DNA of 41,161 nt from a virus. Made by a program: the position numbers and the translations under genes. The number at the start of each line of letters is the position of its first letter. The stretch's first letter is position 1. The notes below the pieces were generated by a model. That model searched no databases. It was given only the letters and a program-made list of their open reading frames with translations, and was not told where the DNA came from. Below, in pieces: positions 2,015 through 37,226 of this stretch. Location: the UHGV virus genome UHGV-0045963; one strand, 5' to 3'.

Positions 2015-2497
2015 CTATCTGGTCAGGGTGTCGTACTGTTTTTCGCAGACTCTTCCGGCTTCGGCTGCCCGGTCAGCATACTCTGCCAGTTGTCTGTTTC
2101 TCTCGAGAGATTTGCTGAGCACGTCGGCAAGCAAAACTCCGGTGTCTGCGGCTGACGACCCAGCGCCGACAATGGCGTTATAGTGCCTGAGCTGCTCACG
2201 GATGGCAACGAGCTGTTGCTGCAACCGGCCAGCGCGAGCGGCAGCATCAAGAGCATCATTGCGCGCCTGGTCGATCCTCTGCTGCGATTCACGTTCATTG
2301 ATCGCTTTCTCCTGTTCGTAGTGCTGACGAACTCTCTCATCTTCAGTTTTGCGGTCTTCTTTCGCCTGAGCATACCCGGCGTCGTACTGACGACTGCCGT
2401 GCACATTCCAGGCAACAACTCCTGATGTGGCAAGAACAGCAAGCATCGCCACGATAATCAAATGTTTCCAGTATGCTTTTACGAATGCCCAGATCAT
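2015..2497 (-). CDS. Rz-like i-spanin
   Basis: N-terminal TM segment then charged coiled-coil region; start overlaps the endolysin stop (ATGA); last gene of the lysis cassette. Confidence 0.75.
2023..2259 (-). CDS. Rz1-like o-spanin embedded in the +1 frame of Rz
   Basis: Internal Met gives [13 protein letters not shown] (lipobox LAGC) followed by a Pro/Ser-rich short protein; fully embedded in Rz as in lambda Rz/Rz1. Exact start uncertain. Confidence 0.5.
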   Translation of the reverse strand: MMLLMLPLALAGCSNSSLPSVSSSGTITPLSALGRQPQTPEFCLPTCSANLSRETDNWQSMLTGQPKPEESAKNSTTP

Positions 2498-3123
2498 ACA
2501 GCCAGCACCTTACTGGCAATGATGTATCGGGCGCGGCGGTCATCAATGCCGTTCCGGCCACCATTGATAATCAGAGTTACACGTGCAATATCGCCGGTAT
2601 ACTTCATGCAGCCTTTGCTGGAGAAGAACCAGGCCGCGCTACGGGCCGCGTATTCGTCCTGTGCCAGCAGTTCAGGATTCTCCAGCAGGTCAACTTTCAG
2701 ACCGTTTCCGCAGTCACGATAGTTATTCAAGCCGGTAATCTGGATAAGTCCGCGCCCACGGTAGTTCCAGCCATCACCAGGGGCATTGTTCCCCATGCGT
2801 TTGCTGTACACCAGATTGGCGATAGCGCGCTGTCGCTCAAGTGGTAATGCTGCTTCACCAGCACGGCGACCCAGTGCATTAGCCTGCCCCTGGGTGAGAC
2901 GCCCAGCCCGAACGAAGTTAGCCAGTCCGGTGACACTGTAGTTGAAATTTTCCTGCAACCGGGTGAAGCCCCCAGACTCATGCCCGACCTGAGCAATAAA
3001 CATTGCCTGATCTTCGGGTTTGCTGATTCCAAACTCTTTCATCGCAGAAGTTATATGCAAGAACCAGCGTTCGGCCAGCGCCTCGCTAATACCAGCAGCA
3101 CGCTGGAATTGTTTAATCTCCAT
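2494..3123 (-). CDS. endolysin, glycoside hydrolase family 19 (chitinase-like lysozyme)
   Basis: GH19-type motifs ([10 protein letters not shown]; [16 protein letters not shown]; AAWFFSS); RBS GAGG; sits between holin and Rz. Confidence 0.85.
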
Positions 3124-3421
3124 GTTTAGACCTCGTTATTTTGAAAATTTGAACGACGTTACCGCGAGTTTTAAGAACCGCAGCAAGCATGACAGCGTTA
3201 ATAATGACCTCAGATAAATCCACAGCCATTGGCGTACGTAACCAGATTGCATAGGCGACTCGAACAGGAATACTGGCCGCAGCAACAATCAGGAAATAAG
3301 CAAGCCATCCTCCCCACCTTCGGTGTTGAGAGCCGTTACGCCGGAATGTGACAACGCGAATTGCTATGCCAGTGCAAATAACTGCATTGGTGATAAGCAA
3401 AAAAAACTCATGCGTTACCAT
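3113..3421 (-). CDS. holin or antiholin-like small membrane protein
   Basis: 102 aa with 2-3 predicted TM segments; RBS GGGGAG; overlaps both neighbours. Confidence 0.5.
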
Positions 3422-3812
3422 CGTCTTTTCTCCCCGGAATTAACTCGCGTGGATTATCGGAAAGGTGATAGAGCCATATACCAATACGCACAGCGACAAT
3501 TGCTGACACGAATGCGCCTGCAGAGAAAACAATCCCTTTTTCAAAAGAGTCCTGCGTGATGGTAGGGATCAGGCTAGCTATGCCGATAAGAATTGATGCT
3601 GCTGGTTTGTAAAAGAGAAGGCCGCAAAGAAAGCTGAGCATCGACATGAGCACCCGGCGACGGATGGGGTACTCTACTGCAGAGGTAACAAAAATTACCG
3701 CCCCAGCCAAAGCCCCTAAAGCAACCTCCGGAGGGACACCTGCAATAACCGCAGCAAGAGAACCAAAACTAAGCAACTGATTTAATTGCTCACTTGTTAC
3801 TTGAGCAGACAT
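3408..3812 (-). CDS. holin-like membrane protein
   Basis: 134 aa with about four hydrophobic segments and a charged C-terminus; RBS AGGAGAAAGT; first gene of the lysis cassette. Confidence 0.6.
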   Translation of the reverse strand: MSAQVTSEQLNQLLSFGSLAAVIAGVPPEVALGALAGAVIFVTSAVEYPIRRRVLMSMLSFLCGLLFYKPAASILIGIASLIPTITQDSFEKGIVFSAGAFVSAIVAVRIGIWLYHLSDNPRELIPGRKDDGNA

Positions 3813-4118: not shown

Positions 4119-7100
4119 TTAACGTTCTTCCAGAGACTGAATCCGCTCTTTTATCTTATCCATTTCTCTGCGCTGCCATGCTGCCTCGATATAGAATAAG
4201 AGATCAGGTCTGACCCCCCATCTAGATCCTGCTGGCGTTATTTCAACGCGCTCAATGATGTCTTCCATTACCATCACTGGATTATCATCCTCATCAACAA
4301 TGATGCTCCCGTCATTATCAGTCAGCTGTATTTCCCTTTGGCCAGTAATGACGTCATCATATACTGCGGGATAATCGTCATAGCAAAGAAAGGCATAGCG
4401 GCATGTTGTGCTTTCTTCTTCCATGAGTCCGTGAGAAATAAGAACATCACGAAGTTGCTGCGCGATTACACCATGATGTATCCTCGCCCCTTCTTCTCCC
4501 TTTATAGCGACAGCGTTCAGCCATTTATAAGCGATATACCTGACGTCACCCCAGGCATCCAGCAATGCTTCGTCAGGAGAGACCGGCTCTGTCTTTAATG
4601 TTCCGTCACTGGTAACCACAGGATTGGAGCCAAGATAAACTGTCGAGAACCTGTTTCCCGGACCACCAAGAGCATTTACATTATCAAGATAAGGTTTAAC
4701 ATCTCCGTTCTCAAAAAGATGTTCGAGTGCGTTATATACCGCGCGACGTGGAGTACTGCTTCCGGAACCATGCAACGTTATCATTGCACCATCTGCTGAA
4801 GACGTTGTTTCACCGCCGCTAACGATTAATCTCTGAGCGGTAACATCATCAGACGGTACTTTCTTCGCAATAATGGCGTAATTGCCCTCCAGTTTGACTT
4901 CCGCGCGAACTTGTCCTGATGTACCTGCATGGACAGTCAGTGACTGGACGGCAACATCATCTGTGAAATCAACGGGTACAGGAACCGTCCTCACGCCGGA
5001 CGTCGACATAAAAGTAGGAAGCGTTCTGTTAGGAGTGGCTCCGTAGACAAAATCCCTTGAAACAAATTCTTCCTGTTTAATTTTCACCCTGAAACAATAC
5101 AAATCAGCCGGGTGACCATCGTGAACATAAGGATATTTTCTGTTGTTATCCCCTATGCTCCATGGGTTTAGAAAGTCTTCCCCACCGAAAATGTAGTACA
5201 GCCAGTTGTCTTTGATACAAACTGAACCAACACCAACCGCAGAGTTAACTATTCCGCCCTGATAAATCTGATCAGTAACATTAACCCACTCTACATTATC
5301 CAGACTCCACTCATTGACGTTAACTCTGGTCATAAATGTTCTTGGATAATTTCCTGCATAACGGTTATCAGGTTCTCCTCCTTCCCACTCACCAAATGCG
5401 CGCTCACTGCCAAAAATAATCAGCTCATCGCCAACTTTGGCAAAAGGAAGGTTTGAGTGATGAACATTATTTGGGAAGCGAAGAGAATTCCATGATGCAC
5501 CTAAATCAGAGCTTCTGTGCAATGAACTACCGGGTTGAGTACTTAATGTCCCCCTGGTCGTCAGATACAGAATGCCATCATAATATTTTACACATGGCTC
5601 AGATGCATTCGCCTCATATTCTGCAGGTATGCGTCTGCGAACAAAGCTACCAGGAGAACCGAAAGCATCAGAGAAATAGAGTATCCCAAGCTCGCGTGGA
5701 CCAATATCACCATTATGGTAGCCAACAGCAAAACTGTTATCGCTAATCGTCGCAAAACTGTGAATCTCAGTAACAGGAGTGCTTCCGTCAACAAAAGAAG
5801 AAATAGTTCCAAGACTGGTTTTTCTCCATGGTGACGAGTGAAATGATGTACCAAAACTCCAGTATCTACCCTCGTTATTCTGATCCACATCCTGAGTATT
5901 TTGCGTCGTAACTGTAAAAGTATTTTTATCAATAACAGTAGTCACCGTCATATTCCCGGTAACACCTGTAACACCAGAGTTTGAGAAGTTGACAAAATCA
6001 CCAGCAAATAATCCGTGATCAGTAATGCGAATATAAGCGACTTGCTGATTTGCTGCTTTCGTTATACCACCATAAACGCGAAGGCTGCGACTCATTGGAC
6101 GATCCCACAACTCTGCAACCTGCAGTTTATTTCCGCGCACGGTCCGCGTCTCAATTACAGCAAAAAGGCGATTTCTGACAACCCCCATACTCATGCAGTG
6201 ATAGTTAACTGTGGGATAGTTTTCATGTAAATCTGTAAGCCATTCCGGCGTTGTCCAGGTCTTCCCGTCATCTCCTGAGCGAACCCATGCAACATGGAGG
6301 TTATTTACACCATGGCGGTCTCCAGCCATAAAAGGCGCATAGATGACATTGTCATATACAAACGTTTTATCCTGCGTCCAGGCGTTGTACCACGGTGTAT
6401 CTGTAATTTTAAATAACTCTCCCTGGATAAAATCTTCAGAAGCATAAAAAAGAGGCTGACCCGGTATTCTCTCAAATAAAAAACGAGCATTTTTAAATCG
6501 GCTGACATCCGGAAGAGTTGATACTTTAAAAGTAAGCCCTAATCCGTCAATTTTATAACCTGGAGATGAGGCTTCAAGGCACGCGCTTATTGCAGTGGAA
6601 TCGTCATTTATACCATCACCAACAGCTCCAAAATCTTTGGGGCTAATAGCATCACGCATTTTATCCTGGAACGTTCGGTATACTGCCCCAGAACCATACT
6701 GAATAAACCAACCAAAACCACCAACAACCCCGGCGATTGCAGCATCGACATAATTACGCATTGAGCGATTATTTACAGCGTCCTGTTCAAGTGATGGATC
6801 TGCAAGGTTAGAAATTCTGTTTTGCTTTGCATCGTAATATTTTGCAAGCAAAGATGGTTTCATCAATGCACGTCTGAACCATCCAAAACATTGCTGGATC
6901 AGCATCGTCAGGTAGTCAAAGGCATCTTCATGCACTTCGGGGAAAAACTTTCCCTGATTGCGAAGGTCTGTCTCCTGCACTACATCAAGCACACGATCTA
7001 TCGTAATTCTCCATCCAGTAGCAAGCGGCGACGGAAGAACCACAGAACCGCCACTATAAGTGCCCGCCCCAGTTACCGTATAACCGGTATCCAGAACCAA

Positions 7101-7238
7101 TTCTGTTACGTTCCCGTTCAGGTCAGACACCTGAACAACCAGGTCGGATTTTCTGAAAATTCGAAAAGTATACGGAAACGATGTCGTAACGCCGTTACCG
7201 GTGTATTCGTTGTGGTCAACTTCGGTTGAGACCGTCAT
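4119..7238 (-). CDS. tailspike with sialidase-like (endo-N-acetylneuraminidase-like) central domain and C-terminal intramolecular chaperone (peptidase S74-like) domain
   Basis: 1039 aa; two Asp-box motifs (SGDDGKTW, SSDLGASW); C-terminal TSDGTLK ... GVIAQQL pattern of self-cleaving chaperone domains; phage fibre-type N-terminus (TGNGVTTSFPYTF). Confidence 0.85.
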   Translation of the reverse strand: MTVSTEVDHNEYTGNGVTTSFPYTFRIFRKSDLVVQVSDLNGNVTELVLDTGYTVTGAGTYSGGSVVLPSPLATGWRITIDRVLDVVQETDLRNQGKFFPEVHEDAFDYLTMLIQQCFGWFRRALMKPSLLAKYYDAKQNRISNLADPSLEQDAVNNRSMRNYVDAAIAGVVGGFGWFIQYGSGAVYRTFQDKMRDAISPKDFGAVGDGINDDSTAISACLEASSPGYKIDGLGLTFKVSTLPDVSRFKNARFLFERIPGQPLFYASEDFIQGELFKITDTPWYNAWTQDKTFVYDNVIYAPFMAGDRHGVNNLHVAWVRSGDDGKTWTTPEWLTDLHENYPTVNYHCMSMGVVRNRLFAVIETRTVRGNKLQVAELWDRPMSRSLRVYGGITKAANQQVAYIRITDHGLFAGDFVNFSNSGVTGVTGNMTVTTVIDKNTFTVTTQNTQDVDQNNEGRYWSFGTSFHSSPWRKTSLGTISSFVDGSTPVTEIHSFATISDNSFAVGYHNGDIGPRELGILYFSDAFGSPGSFVRRRIPAEYEANASEPCVKYYDGILYLTTRGTLSTQPGSSLHRSSDLGASWNSLRFPNNVHHSNLPFAKVGDELIIFGSERAFGEWEGGEPDNRYAGNYPRTFMTRVNVNEWSLDNVEWVNVTDQIYQGGIVNSAVGVGSVCIKDNWLYYIFGGEDFLNPWSIGDNNRKYPYVHDGHPADLYCFRVKIKQEEFVSRDFVYGATPNRTLPTFMSTSGVRTVPVPVDFTDDVAVQSLTVHAGTSGQVRAEVKLEGNYAIIAKKVPSDDVTAQRLIVSGGETTSSADGAMITLHGSGSSTPRRAVYNALEHLFENGDVKPYLDNVNALGGPGNRFSTVYLGSNPVVTSDGTLKTEPVSPDEALLDAWGDVRYIAYKWLNAVAIKGEEGARIHHGVIAQQLRDVLISHGLMEEESTTCRYAFLCYDDYPAVYDDVITGQREIQLTDNDGSIIVDEDDNPVMVMEDIIERVEITPAGSRWGVRPDLLFYIEAAWQRREMDKIKERIQSLEER

Positions 7239-7698: not shown

Positions 7699-7716
7699 AG
7701 GCCGCAAGAGCGGCCT
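7699..7716. terminator. hairpin shared by the convergent genes 7420..7692 and 7715..8443
   Basis: AGGCCGC AAGA GCGGCCT stem-loop; overlaps the stop codon of the minus-strand gene. Confidence 0.45.
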
Positions 7717-8443
7717 ATCGTTTCGCTTTGTGCTCATCCCAGCACGTTTTGCACCATGCCATTAAGCCGTCCGCATTTTGATTATTAGGGTAAAAGCTGG
7801 TTCGTTTTCTGCGGACATTACAAATTGGGCACCACTTCATATGGCGTGTATTCTTTGGGCCATCGAGACACCTTGCACACCACTTAGTCAATCCATCTGG
7901 ATTTTTTGACGATTTCCTGAATTTTTCATATGGAAGGTTTATTCTGCATCGCAAGCACTGCTTGCTACCACTTGAAACTCTGTTAGCTGATTCTTCTTTT
8001 GGCGGCGATACAGAAGGTATTCTTGCTGGCTCTGATACTGCCTGAGGTGCTTTTTTAGATGACTGAGACGATATGTCATCACCAGGGAATCTTCCATGAT
8101 ATGCCGGACGCGTTGACACTCCAGGTGGAAGCTCAGCTGTAAACGGCTTTGGCTGAATCAGTTGCCTCTCTTTTGCTAACTCCTGCTGTTTATAATATGT
8201 CTGGATTACCGCACTATCATAAGCAGGAGGTGCGGAAATATTAGGCGCATTACCTCCAGTTTTTTGAAACTGAGTAGAGGTGTGTTCTATCACCTGTGTA
8301 CGATTAATCGTTATCTCCCCATCTTCGGTCTTTATCGTTTTGTTATGATTAACGACCGTACGATCAGAGATCTTAGTCTTGTTCTGGTTGATAACGTAAA
8401 TAATCACCGCAACCACACCAACAACTATCCAGAAAACTTCCAT
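7715..8443 (-). CDS. membrane-anchored protein with C-terminal tandem Cys4 zinc-ribbon-like repeats, unknown function
   Basis: N-terminal TM (VFWIVVGVVAVIIYVI), Ser/Pro/Gln-rich linker, two repeats C-x2-C ... WC-x-x-C (CLRCR...WCARC; CPICN...WCKTC); RBS GAGGAAAAGCA. Confidence 0.6.
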   Translation of the reverse strand: MEVFWIVVGVVAVIIYVINQNKTKISDRTVVNHNKTIKTEDGEITINRTQVIEHTSTQFQKTGGNAPNISAPPAYDSAVIQTYYKQQELAKERQLIQPKPFTAELPPGVSTRPAYHGRFPGDDISSQSSKKAPQAVSEPARIPSVSPPKEESANRVSSGSKQCLRCRINLPYEKFRKSSKNPDGLTKWCARCLDGPKNTRHMKWCPICNVRRKRTSFYPNNQNADGLMAWCKTCWDEHKAKR

Positions 8444-8479: not shown

Positions 8480-8555
8480 ATCTTGCTTTCAGGTGATCAA
8501 GCGTTAAACGCAATCAACCAAATACGGTTGATTTTTATATTTATCAGCGTTTATC

Positions 8556-8572
8556 ATTACCTTTGCGGTAAA
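8556..8572. promoter_or_regulatory. operator-like palindrome ATTACCTTTGCGGTAAA
   Basis: Second copy 93 bp from the first, upstream of the ant leader. Confidence 0.55.
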
Positions 8573-8684: not shown

Positions 8685-8842
8685 ATGCGTATAGCACAGT
8701 CATGCCAGAATTATGGTGGGACGTGCAGGGGCACCGAAAGGTGCGCCGGGTCCTTTTAGCCGGTAGTGCAAACCCTGTACGTCTCACCACCAACGAGATT
8801 TGCACCTCAGGTGGTGATTAACCATACTAAAAGGTGATTGCC

Positions 8843-9529
8843 ATGACTGCTAACGTAACCCCATCTGTTTTTCATTTTGAATCAGAAGCAACCATTCGAG
8901 CCATTGTTATTGATGGAAATCCTTGGTTTGTTGCCAAAGACGTTATTAAAGCTCTTCAACTGACAAACCCCACCATGTCAATCAAATCTCTTGATGATGA
9001 TGAAAGGGCTAAATTTAACTTAGGTCGTCAAGGCGAAACCAATATTATCAGCGAGTCAGGCCTCTACACACTGATCCTCCGCTGCCGCGATGCGGTGACA
9101 CCAGGCACTATCCCCTACCGCTTTCGTAAATGGGTTACAGGTGAGGTTCTTCCTCAGATCCGCCGCACCGGAAGTTACATTAAAAACTCGCTCCCGCAGG
9201 AAGAACGCATAAAGATGGTTGCCGACCAGGTAGCCAACGCCACAGCATCAGCAGTGATGCAGGCGATGAAGATAGAGAACAAAACCTACAGTGCCCCACT
9301 GAAGCCCGGCTACCGCAGCCTGATTCACTCGCCGTCTGGTGTTCTCGGCCTGACGGAGAACTCACTGCTGATGAATCTGTTGAACCAGTTACAGGAAGAC
9401 GGGCACGACGTATCGGGCGCGGCGGCGGAGCTGACCACCATGTTCTGCTACATCGTCGGTGTGAGCAAATGCCTGCGTGATATCCAGACTCACGCGGAGT
9501 ACATCAACGACAAAGCAGGATTCTTCTGA
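8843..9529 (+). CDS. antirepressor (Bro-N/Ant-type N-terminal domain plus C-terminal domain shared with 7420..7692)
   Basis: N-terminal Bro-N-like sequence (FHFESEATIRAIVIDGNPWFVAKDV...); RBS AAGGTG 6 nt before ATG 8843; the track start at 8834 is GTG. Confidence 0.75.
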   Translation: MTANVTPSVFHFESEATIRAIVIDGNPWFVAKDVIKALQLTNPTMSIKSLDDDERAKFNLGRQGETNIISESGLYTLILRCRDAVTPGTIPYRFRKWVTGEVLPQIRRTGSYIKNSLPQEERIKMVADQVANATASAVMQAMKIENKTYSAPLKPGYRSLIHSPSGVLGLTENSLLMNLLNQLQEDGHDVSGAAAELTTMFCYIVGVSKCLRDIQTHAEYINDKAGFF

Positions 9530-9600
9530 CGGGCGGCGGCACAGGGATGTGCCTTTAAATAATTCTGTACAGATTGCAGACTGGGGGTGAATAGAGTACT

Positions 9601-9617
9601 ATTACCCCAAAGGTAAA
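9601..9617. promoter_or_regulatory. operator-like palindrome ATTACCCCAAAGGTAAA
   Basis: Same family; 25 nt upstream of the 9643 ATG, near a candidate TTGCAG -35 element. Confidence 0.5.
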
Positions 9618-9642
9618 CCGAGAGTTTACATGAGGGGGAAAC

Positions 9643-9831
9643 ATGGAAATCAACATCATTACATTGCTGAAGGCCATTATTGGCGGAGCGGGCTTAGGCT
9701 TTGCCCTACCAGGCGGATTATCTTTCCTGCTTCCTGCTTTTACTGTTACAGCTGGGATAGCCTATGCATTTGCTGTGGCTGGTGCTGTTGCACTCCCTGC
9801 TATCTATGCCGCAAAGAAGTTAGCCAACTAA
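9643..9831 (+). CDS. small hydrophobic Gly/Ala-rich peptide with double-glycine-leader-like N-terminus
   Basis: 62 aa; MEINIITLLKAIIGG followed by a 47-aa Gly/Ala/Leu-rich hydrophobic region ending KKLAN; RBS GAGGGGG. Confidence 0.5.
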   Translation: MEINIITLLKAIIGGAGLGFALPGGLSFLLPAFTVTAGIAYAFAVAGAVALPAIYAAKKLAN

Positions 9832-9832
9832 A

Positions 9833-10165
9833 ATGCCTGATTTATCTTGGCTTGCGCCCAGAGATGCACAGCAATTGACAAGGTTTTATTTCATACTGTG
9901 CATTGCTTATCTTGCTGTTCATCTGATATGGGATGCCGTTTGCAAAGATACGCCTCCTTTTTCTTTGGATAAGTTGCAATACAAGATGAATGAGGTTTAT
10001 TCATCATCTACTTTTGCAACCAGCGCATTCTTCATTGTTATTCTGTTCGATATGAAGAATCCACTGAGAACTTCAGATGCTTTCATATTCCCATTAATTA
10101 TTGCTGCTCTAACTGGCTTTATGATCTCATTATCAGCAATAGTGCCAAAGAAAGTAAATAACTGA
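9833..10165 (+). CDS. polytopic small membrane protein (candidate immunity or partner protein of 9643..9831)
   Basis: 110 aa, three hydrophobic segments; start 1 nt after the preceding stop; followed by a terminator. Confidence 0.5.
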   Translation: MPDLSWLAPRDAQQLTRFYFILCIAYLAVHLIWDAVCKDTPPFSLDKLQYKMNEVYSSSTFATSAFFIVILFDMKNPLRTSDAFIFPLIIAALTGFMISLSAIVPKKVNN

Positions 10166-10168
10166 ATA

Positions 10169-10190
10169 AGCCCGCGTTGCGGGCTTTTTT
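10169..10190 (+). terminator. intrinsic terminator
   Basis: Stem AGCCCGC / GCGGGCT with loop GTT followed by T6. Confidence 0.7.
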
Positions 10191-10262
10191 ATGGACGAAA
10201 CAAAAGTCAGTGCTACACTCATTGACGCCACATCGAGGTGGCTTATAGATGGAAATGTCACA

Positions 10263-10424
10263 ATGAAAAAAGCATTTGCTGCACTGTTCGTTTTGTTGTC
10301 TCTGGTAGCTTCAACTCAGGCCTTTGCCGGTCGTTGTCAGCACGACAGCGACACTGCTGCTGACGGCTCCCGCTGCGGTGGGCGTTCTGCGGATTCCCGC
10401 CCGGGTGGCGGTGGCATTCGTTAA
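10263..10424 (+). CDS. small secreted Cys-containing peptide (about 53 aa)
   Basis: Signal peptide MKKAFAALFVLLSLVASTQAFA then a Gly/Ser/Asp-rich tail with two Cys; weak RBS; the track start at 10191 directly follows a terminator. Confidence 0.35.
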   Translation: MKKAFAALFVLLSLVASTQAFAGRCQHDSDTAADGSRCGGRSADSRPGGGGIR

Positions 10425-10455: not shown

Positions 10456-10836
10456 TCACGCAACGCAATTATTACCGCGCCATGTAACATTTTTAATAAT
10501 CTTATCAGCACCAAACTCAACGTAAACAGAGCAACTGAAATGGAGTGTATAACCGCCATCAGTTGTTGCGTATGTGTTTGAATATATAGTATTACCAATT
10601 AGATTAGACGTAGTATTATACGTTGTGGTTTGTGGTACGTTATAACTACCAGAGCTTGAGTAAACATACACTCTGTTTCCATCTGGAGATGTAAGCTCTC
10701 CCTGAGGATACCCCCACTGCTGAACCATTGCGTCTATACTCTGCCCGCGCCACGTAAGCATATTTCTTTCAAACTGTGCAGCTGACTGGCATCCAACGAG
10801 AAGCATAAATCCAAAAATCAAAAATACTTTTCTCAT
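10456..10836 (-). CDS. lipoprotein, candidate superinfection-exclusion or surface moron
   Basis: MRKVFLIFGFMLLVGC lipobox; Thr/Ser/Asn/Tyr-rich mature part; AT-rich context between virion genes and ant. Start could be 10851 or 10872. Confidence 0.6.
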   Translation of the reverse strand: MRKVFLIFGFMLLVGCQSAAQFERNMLTWRGQSIDAMVQQWGYPQGELTSPDGNRVYVYSSSGSYNVPQTTTYNTTSNLIGNTIYSNTYATTDGGYTLHFSCSVYVEFGADKIIKNVTWRGNNCVA

Positions 10837-10921
10837 AATTACCCCTATCATGGAAAAACAGCACCAATCCACAAATTAACTAGTTATTTTATTATTCTTC
10901 CGAACAATACAATTCCGAATA

Positions 10922-36089: not shown

Positions 36090-36106
36090 ATTACCTTTGA
36101 GGTACG
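36090..36106. promoter_or_regulatory. operator-like site ATTACCTTTGAGGTACG
   Basis: Left half perfect, right half GGTAC; lies 19 bp from the artificial homopolymer/gap. Confidence 0.4.
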
Positions 36107-36124: not shown

Positions 36125-36232
<108 letters not shown>

Positions 36233-36256
36233 TCTACAGAGGGTTGTAGCTGGATA

Positions 36257-36641: not shown

Positions 36642-37226
36642 ATGAAAAGTATCCAGGACGTCCGCAGGCAAAATCTCAACGACTTGATCGACCGTGAATT
36701 CAATGGTGTTCAGACGCGGATGGCAGAAAAACTTGGAACTCAGGCAAATCTGGTAAACCGCTGGGCTCTTGGCAAGAAGGTTATCGGCGACCAGGTTGCA
36801 CGAAAAATTGAAGCTGCCGCCAATAAACCCCGTAACTGGCTTGATATTGATCGTTCGCTTTCTCAGGAGGGTTTTCAGCCTGTCGGCCCGAGCGATATAG
36901 GTCAGCTGGCGGCTCACAACCTGGAACGCTGGATGAGCGAAAGCCGCGACCTTTCAACACAGGGAAAACTTCACCGCGCATCCGGCGTCGCCCAGGTGAC
37001 AATCAGCCGCCTGTTAAACAATGAGGTCAGCGTTTCCATTTCCACTCTGGAGAATGTTGCATCCGCATTCGGGCGTCACGGATATGAACTACTGATTCAC
37101 CCGCACGACCCTGCGACTATCAACTATGACCGCTCACGCTACGCATTGTTACCCGAAACCGAGAAAGCAAAGATCGAAAGTTACATTGAATTTGTCATCA
37201 ACCAGAACGAAAAAAGCAAACAATAA
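36642..37226 (+). CDS. CI-like repressor with two XRE-type HTH regions and no recognisable LexA-like autocleavage domain
   Basis: 194 aa; HTH-like segments near residues 25-45 and 115-135; no Ala-Gly/Cys-Gly plus Ser/Lys S24 motifs seen; no SD sequence before the ATG; followed by a terminator and OL-like operators. Confidence 0.65.
   Translation: MKSIQDVRRQNLNDLIDREFNGVQTRMAEKLGTQANLVNRWALGKKVIGDQVARKIEAAANKPRNWLDIDRSLSQEGFQPVGPSDIGQLAAHNLERWMSESRDLSTQGKLHRASGVAQVTISRLLNNEVSVSISTLENVASAFGRHGYELLIHPHDPATINYDRSRYALLPETEKAKIESYIEFVINQNEKSKQ

Follow-up and report, generated by a model that had tools for sequence, protein, structure and literature searches.

A promoter-operator cassette of an epsilon15-like prophage encodes a predicted membrane hairpin peptide and a three-helix membrane partner

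Double-glycine microcins and bacteriocins of the colicin V type (CvaC/Cvi) are among the described systems that come closest to the two adjacent small genes considered here, which lie in the virus genome UHGV-0045963 (41,161 nucleotides; this whole stretch is called the window throughout) and encode a Gly/Ala-rich peptide of 62 amino acids (aa) and a membrane partner protein of 110 aa. A sequence-only reading of the window had taken the first product for a double-glycine leader followed by a bacteriocin-like core, and the second for its immunity protein. The likeness lies in a small Gly/Ala-rich peptide, a GG near residue 15 and an adjacent small membrane protein, but the N-terminus is hydrophobic here as compared to the amphipathic, charged leader of the CvaC/Cvi type, and the peptide is predicted to lie in the membrane over its entire length; it also lacks the acidic residue at -8 and the Leu at -12 and matches no hidden Markov model (HMM) of that type, and the gene tables and annotations obtained show no exporter. 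Our structure predictions indicate instead that the first gene encodes an uncleaved-looking hairpin of two transmembrane (TM) helices and not a leader-plus-core secreted peptide, and that the second encodes a three-helix inner-membrane protein. A two-helix peptide with a three-helix partner and a travelling promoter-operator is not a described system.

Pinholins and class II holins, for instance S21 of phage 21, offer a second comparison, since they too are phage-encoded, about 60-70 aa long and built of two TM helices with glycine-zipper motifs, and the cassette is predicted, as they are, to be expressed in lytic growth. Unlike them, the peptide has no charged C-terminal tail and no sequence or HMM relationship to the holins, and the cassette is not part of this phage's lysis cassette, its copies in lambdoid phages being adjacent to the lysis genes but outside them; the S21 antiholin is an N-terminally extended isoform, whereas the partner here is a separate three-helix protein. 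With the toxins Hok, TisB and GhoT the peptide shares its shortness, its strong hydrophobicity and, putatively, a depolarising potential. Type I toxins differ in being controlled by antisense RNA and not by a protein partner, there is no homology, and frameshifts of the partner are tolerated here. The immunity proteins of E1-type pore-forming colicins are, like the partner of about 110 aa, three-helix inner-membrane proteins, which makes the partner a possible neutraliser, and toxin-antidote pairs in general are likewise made up of two small neighbouring genes of one direction that are always found, and translated, together. The pair resembles P22 SieA and T4 Imm in consisting of inner-membrane proteins that a temperate podovirus encodes in the accessory stretch separating its tail genes from its ejection genes; it differs in showing no homology to them, in comprising two proteins and in having a repressor operator that predicts silence in the lysogen. 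Lastly, the c-subunit of F-type ATPases is a structural analogy only: it is a two-helix hairpin with a first helix rich in G-x-G-x-G that suits ring packing, and c-subunits are among the weak Foldseek matches of the peptide (E>1, not significant), but the peptide has neither the conserved carboxylate nor a matching operon context.

The window represents a prophage of E. coli that is epsilon15/phiV10-like (Uetakevirus-type), and its positions 9574-10193 form a self-contained moron cassette of promoter, repressor operator, two translationally coupled genes and terminator (Table 1). Open reading frame (ORF) calls, hydropathy, AlphaFold2 and RefSeq, where an identical prophage carries peptide and partner as two hypothetical proteins, all bear out a Gly/Ala-rich peptide gene followed by a three-helix membrane partner, the start codon of the latter lying 1 nt past the stop codon of the former. 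The cassette has the marks of a moron, namely its own promoter and terminator, conserved genes on its flanks, absence from close relatives and an atypical composition (42% GC, and 37.5% for the partner gene, as compared to 49% for the window). The description of the pair as operator-controlled and terminator-bounded held as well: the 17-bp operator stands ahead of it, and directly 3' of the partner gene there is an intrinsic terminator that is G+C-rich and strong and that has its counterpart, a matching hairpin and T-run, 3' of the partner gene in other phage contexts. Upstream of the pair is the Bro-N antirepressor gene (8834-9529). Between the E. coli and Klebsiella copies the proportion of nonsynonymous differences (pN) is 0.05 and that of synonymous differences (pS) 0.61 in the peptide gene, with 0.08 and 0.89 in the partner gene and similar behaviour in other pairs of copies; because pN is far below pS, we regard both genes as really coding and under strong purifying selection.

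The peptide, which runs from MEINIITLLKAIIGGAGLGFALPGG to a C-terminal KKLAN, contains 15 Ala and 8 Gly and has a grand average of hydropathy (GRAVY) of +1.33. The leader motif that had drawn attention to it is literally there: a GG at residues 14-15 (-2/-1), preceded by hydrophobic residues at -4 (Ile) and -7 (Leu). This pattern is uninformative because the peptide is hydrophobic almost throughout and has a second GG at 24-25, and a GG near residue 15 in such a Gly-rich hydrophobic peptide is no evidence for a double-glycine leader. The remainder of the leader consensus does not fit. Compared with an approximate set of 17 double-glycine leaders, residues 1-15 are far too hydrophobic (GRAVY +1.43, where the leaders average -0.40 +/- 0.40 and do not exceed 0.38), a Leu stands at position -8, which is Glu or Asp in most of the leaders, and position -12 is polar family-wide (Asn in most copies) where they have Leu. 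The position-weight score of 11.3 is low but inside the range of these leaders (leave-one-out mean 19.3, minimum 5.6), and the GG itself supplies most of it. The proposed comparison with leader profiles likewise came out negative, in that no bacteriocin, microcin or other family in Pfam or NCBIfam matched the peptide at E<=1. The putative 47-aa core has a GRAVY of +1.30, which makes it implausible as a diffusible toxin.

AlphaFold2, run on a 31-sequence alignment, predicts for the peptide a hairpin (mean predicted local distance difference test score, pLDDT, 88.6) with helices at residues 5-29 and 37-61 and a turn at 30-36 (LPAFTVT). G14-G15 sit in the middle of the first helix, which is unbroken in the model, and residues 11-20 have a mean pLDDT of 94. 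The best-conserved stretch, K10-A-x-I-G-G-A-G-x-G-F-A-x-x-G-G-L-S-x-x-x-P-x-x-T-V-T (K10 to T36), extends over both sides of the point at which cleavage had been supposed; within the close family G14 is invariant and G15 nearly so, one sequence having a two-residue gap at 15-16. The peptide is rich in small-xxx-small (glycine-zipper) motifs, and KKLAN is all there is of a C-terminal tail. Its homologues fall into 46 clusters, in which all named members are Enterobacterales, and it matches phrog_13406 (E 2.5e-38, function unknown). The earlier statement that no dedicated exporter is nearby agrees with what we obtained: neither an ATP-binding cassette (ABC)/C39 exporter nor an accessory-protein gene is found in the annotated identical prophage, on the epsilon15 map or in the gene and Pfam tables of the related loci, a negative that covers the loci with gene tables, the viral and genome-scan loci having been read with a gene panel that holds no ABC genes.

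The partner has three hydrophobic segments in its hydropathy profile and, in the AlphaFold2 model (pLDDT 73.8), long helices at 12-36, 52-72 and 82-103. Its near-invariant polar motifs are HLIWD and FDxKNPLRTSDAFIFP, and its only PHROG match is phrog_36716 (E 2.5e-40, function unknown). A profile search of 1.84 billion cluster representatives returned 83 relatives at E<=1e-3, many of them 25-35% identical. Distant genomic contexts were available as five distinct loci, and each of them has, immediately ahead of the partner homologue, a small ORF whose product shows two hydrophobic segments; in at least four cases the first segment opens with a related K-x-x-I-(A/G)-G-x-x-L-G motif (KGAIAGIGLGMA, KAGIGGAGLGIA and KGAIAGVSLLLA, with the related VAGAGAGLALTG and SIIAGVALGM). 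The hhalign comparisons of the peptide with three of the distant ORFs gave E values of 1.4e-4, 2.2e-3 and 0.32, a modest sequence support for homology of the small ORFs to the peptide, to which their conserved position ahead of a clear partner homologue adds weight. In four of the five probable distant homologues, whose homology is weakly supported, Ala-Gly replaces Gly-Gly, and the N-terminal extensions of the five, 8 to about 30 residues long, are quite unlike one another in character. Fold searches yielded generic helical matches only, and a profile of the peptide family found nothing meaningful among the PDB sequences; in PADLOC-DB neither protein matches, nor do the neighbouring genes or the alternative cargos of the slot described below. 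The names of more than 80 cluster members are all "hypothetical" or "uncharacterised membrane protein", and searches of the literature by RefSeq accession and keyword found nothing on the family. We note in passing that the minus strand has two promoter-like matches, overlapping each other, at 10121-10158 within the 3' end of the partner gene; these could give rise to an antisense transcript over the cassette or could be due to chance.

On the regulation of the cassette our reading departs from the earlier one, which held the pair to be probably expressed in the lysogen. The window contains 15 copies of the palindrome ATTACC-N5-GGTAAT as compared to 1.5 expected; copies flank the helix-turn-helix (HTH) repressor gene at 36642-37226 and are also found in the early, antirepressor and tailspike promoter regions. 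In the epsilon15 record AY150271.2, seven copies of the motif are labelled "protein_bind, repressor, lysogeny". The cassette operator overlaps both the -10 element and the expected transcription start, and the Bro-N promoter shows the same overlap of -10 and operator (TATCAT at 8552-8557, operator at 8556-8572). A repressor operator in this place predicts that the cassette is repressed in an epsilon15-type lysogen, and we consider it more likely, judging from the sequence, that the cassette is off in the lysogen and made on infection or induction. An operator beside a prophage gene argues for silencing in the lysogen and not for expression.

The promoter itself matches the consensus at 7 of 12 positions, below the listing of our consensus scan. 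TTGnnn-N17-TAnnAT is nevertheless in register upstream of 12 diverged cassette copies from three phage contexts, and the promoter-operator unit occupies the slot whatever the cargo. It also moves with the cassette into lambdoid phages, where the -35, the -10 and the half-sites are fixed and the 5-nt operator spacer is variable; fixed half-sites with a free spacer are the pattern expected of a protein-binding site. We had entertained the possibility that the CCCC of the spacer pairs with the GGGGG of the ribosome binding site as an anti-Shine-Dalgarno sequence, and rejected it since the spacer varies while the half-sites do not. Most copies have a hairpin of 6-7 bp in the 5' untranslated region (UTR) at a matching position (-4 to -8 kcal/mol), with stems of three kinds (GTAAAC/GTTTAC, TTCAAC/GTTGAA and CCGG.../...CCGG); its energies are modest and the evidence for it is weak. 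Epsilon15-type operators with at most one mismatch are not confined to the sides of the repressor gene but stand at nearly every transcription-unit boundary of the window (7342, 8463, 8556, 9601, 27124, 30269, 30287, 34089, 34151, 36571, 37282 and 37344), and the repressor appears from this distribution to act directly on antirepressor, tailspike, replication and structural promoters and to silence them.

Peptide and partner are a strictly linked, translationally coupled pair. Among the complete loci of the close family, about 50 as fetched and in part redundant, none lacks either gene, and the stop-1 nt-start junction is kept in E. coli, Serratia, Yersinia, a lambdoid phage and, when counted from the in-register ATG there, Klebsiella. 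The possibility that the peptide is a conserved structural or holin-like protein of related phages was not borne out, as the pair is missing from the nearest phages, in which the shared part is only about 60 nt of upstream flank. There, the slot after the antirepressor, behind the common promoter-operator, holds other genes or almost nothing (Table 1) and behaves as a cargo hotspot. Of 5426 complete E. coli genomes, only 19 carry the pair. Two further slots hold the cassette in lambdoid phages, one after the Q antiterminator gene and before the holin gene, the other after Rz and before the small terminase gene. In Serratia fonticola, Kosakonia and a Klebsiella sp. it adjoins guaA, the epsilon15-type attachment site (PMC9782041). 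Nine Yersinia species and Sodalis sp. RH21 carry the pair at one fixed chromosomal site (ttcA, zntB-like corA, the pair, a gene for an mppA-like binding protein, a gene for an mpaA-like peptidase; pair at about 7790-8340 in each of loci L051-L059, Sodalis being L055), with 39-61% identity to the phage copy in the peptide and 64-71% in the partner, and the identity of the site in all of them suggests an old chromosomal residence. More than 1000 Y. enterocolitica contigs carry the pair. A gene for an ABM-domain monooxygenase lies just upstream of the pair in Serratia fonticola (L005-L008, 5324-5620) and likewise in an unrelated metagenomic locus (L061, 2700-2993) whose distant homologue adjoins an integrase, a recurrence that may be coincidence or may reflect a common insertion context.

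Table 1. Coordinates of the cassette features in the window, and contents of the corresponding slot in related prophages (positions with an L number are those of the related locus)
Feature	Position	Strand	Details
62-aa Gly/Ala-rich peptide gene	9643-9831	+	ORF call; RefSeq hypothetical protein
110-aa partner gene	9833-10165	+	ORF call; RefSeq hypothetical protein
Sigma-70-like promoter	9574-9602	+	-35 TTGCAG 9574-9579, 17-nt spacer, -10 TACTAT 9597-9602
17-bp palindromic operator ATTACCCCAAAGGTAAA	9601-9617	.	Epsilon15-type repressor site, 1 mismatch
5'-UTR hairpin GTAAAC-CGAGA-GTTTAC	9613-9629	+	Just 5' of the Shine-Dalgarno sequence
Shine-Dalgarno sequence GAGGGGG	9633-9639	+	Ahead of the peptide gene
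Intrinsic terminator	10168-10193 (hairpin and T-run 10168-10186)	+	8-bp stem, 6 G-C pairs, T-run
Slot downstream of antirepressor, TL-2011b	L001 3785-4484		YafO-family toxin pair
Slot, other prophages	L004 2464-3003		DUF4760 gene
Slot, EC.W1-9	L002 3030-3831		Two other hypothetical genes
Slot, phiV10	L066 3862-3951		Empty, almost nothing

What might such a pair do? The earlier note had also raised the possibility of a membrane-active exclusion or abortive-infection peptide, and a putative non-exported peptide of this kind acting with its partner is compatible with all of the findings. The reading that we favour, with a probability of roughly 40%, is that the peptide is a pore-forming hairpin restrained or gated by the membrane partner and used for exclusion or host manipulation in lytic growth. 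Peptide and partner would form an inner-membrane complex of fixed stoichiometry; the hairpin would oligomerise into an ion-leaking pore, as pinholins or small hydrophobic toxins do, and the three-helix partner would restrain or gate that pore. Where the repressor is present, the operator would hold the cassette off or low in the epsilon15-like prophage, and the output of the pair would be an altered integrity or potential of the inner membrane by which competing phages are excluded or the infected cell is modulated. We prefer an ion leak because the glycine-zipper hairpin resembles oligomerising pinholins, small hydrophobic toxins and c-subunit rings. A broader suggestion, which we put forward tentatively and hold to be rather doubtful, is that the pair founds an undescribed two-component inner-membrane family, a c-subunit- or pinholin-like glycine-zipper hairpin with a three-helix partner, that extends beyond the Enterobacterales (83 cluster representatives for the partner), is mobile between the slots of temperate phages along with its promoter and operator, has been domesticated at the fixed site in Yersinia and Sodalis, and could represent a new membrane-depolarising exclusion or abortive-infection system or a protein-antidote counterpart to small hydrophobic toxins under RNA control.

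Several observations weigh against the gated pore. Two Serratia copies and one phage copy have a frameshifted partner gene next to an intact peptide gene, which is awkward if the peptide cannot do without the partner as its antidote; possible explanations are repression and internal restarts. The polar motifs of the partner are better conserved than the peptide, and from this the partner may be the effector and the peptide an accessory. A benign physiological role would account for the fixed site in Yersinia and Sodalis no less well than toxicity would. The lambdoid carriers show no epsilon15-type repressor and no further operators in the stretches read, so expression there may be constitutive or late. 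Finally, no characterised holin, toxin, immunity or defence relative of either protein was found in Pfam, NCBIfam, PHROGs or PADLOC.

Alternatively, the pair might form a non-toxic superinfection-exclusion complex that blocks entry of the DNA of related phages, as P22 SieA and T4 Imm do, while the cell is not permeabilised. The cassette lies between the tailspike and antirepressor genes on one side and the ejection-protein genes on the other, a position that we take to correspond to the P22 immI-sieA region, the two products are predicted integral membrane proteins, and in this setting the pair is a cargo of temperate phages only, missing in close relatives. Set against these points are the lack of similarity to annotated exclusion proteins, the predicted silence in the lysogen, which is where exclusion is normally needed, and the long-term fixed copies that Yersinia and Sodalis carry, which exclusion genes do not usually have; on balance we find this unlikely. 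We give a similarly low probability to a benign pair of small membrane proteins, which might serve, for example, as accessory or regulatory subunit in the envelope or the transport functions of the host and would have been acquired by phages for lysogenic conversion or host tuning. This would sit well with the syntenic, apparently vertical Yersinia and Sodalis locus, with its abundance among Y. enterocolitica contigs, with the strong purifying selection on both genes and with the tolerated partner frameshifts. It is less easily reconciled with the absence of any link to a known family, with a distribution outside Yersinia that is patchy and tied to mobile elements, as is typical of conflict genes, and with a sister phage that holds a toxin-antitoxin pair in the same slot.

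Less probable again is an auxiliary lysis-timing module, working alongside the phage's own lysis cassette, in which the peptide would be a pinholin-like depolariser and the partner its antiholin. The resemblance of a 62-aa two-helix glycine-zipper peptide to class II holins and pinholins, the lambdoid cassettes that abut the lysis genes on either side, and the expression in lytic growth implied by the operator or by a late-operon position would all suit it. The peptide, however, matches no holin HMM and ends in KKLAN only where holins have a long charged tail; a complete lysis cassette with two holin-family genes is present 5.8 kb away (2015-3812), the sites that flank lysis genes are generic moron slots, and the chromosomal copies are without any endolysin. 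A double-glycine class II bacteriocin or microcin, cut after G15, exported by a peptidase-domain ABC transporter encoded elsewhere and countered by gene 2 as immunity protein, is very improbable: the GG with its hydrophobic neighbours, the low but in-range position-weight score and an order of structural gene then small membrane-protein gene as in bacteriocin-immunity operons are outweighed by the overly hydrophobic N-terminus, the unfitting -8 and -12 positions, the empty HMM searches, the predicted helix through the GG, the Ala-Gly of four of the five probable distant homologues and their dissimilar extensions, the hydrophobic core and the absence of an exporter gene from the gene tables and annotations obtained.

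Several other features of the window were noted. Just after its terminator, at 10263-10424 (+), is a conserved 53-aa ORF with a signal-peptide-like N-terminus (MKKAFAALFVLLSLVASTQAFA) and a Gly/Asp/Ser-rich tail of 31 aa with two Cys; it belongs to phrog_14503 ("membrane associated protein", moron category), matches HxsA3 weakly (E 0.006) and is present whatever the cargo of the slot. It is followed at 10456-10872 (-) by an ORF of 138 aa that matches phrog_3716 (function unknown) and whose product has a lipoprotein-like signal (LLVGC). Related prophages differ here, carrying a second Bro-N gene or hypothetical genes for 98-204 aa, which suggests a second variable cargo position, and the 138-aa product could be an exclusion lipoprotein. 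On the other side, a region with operators separates the antirepressor gene from the divergent gene at 7715-8443 (-), whose 242-aa product has a hydrophobic helix at the N-terminus, two zinc-ribbon motifs rich in Cys at the C-terminus and weak matches to Stc1 and to endonuclease VII/HNH-like PHROGs. The product of 4119-7238 (-) has an identical RefSeq protein annotated with an endosialidase beta-propeller domain, and the genomes with an identical cassette include O1:K1:H7 avian-pathogenic strains and an extraintestinal pathogenic E. coli (ExPEC) strain; this epsilon15-like prophage appears to target the K1 capsule. In the immunity region, 36125-36233 consists of about 34 G and about 50 N followed by poly-A, C and G, adjoining an operator-like site at 36090; it looks like an assembly gap or artefact, so that the start of the leftward early operon is unreliable to read.

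For the reading of sequences, this locus illustrates how easily a GG in a Gly-rich peptide and an operator in a prophage are misread as a leader and as expression in the lysogen. In kind the pair is already familiar, as small membrane proteins are a frequent cargo of temperate phages and many are uncharacterised, and as it stands it is one among many such cargo genes. Prophages of Klebsiella and E. coli commonly carry it, in Yersinia enterocolitica it is core-like, and if the peptide were indeed a pore former checked by its membrane partner, the pair would represent a compact type of toxin-antidote or exclusion module that is absent from the catalogues of defence and toxin-antitoxin systems.

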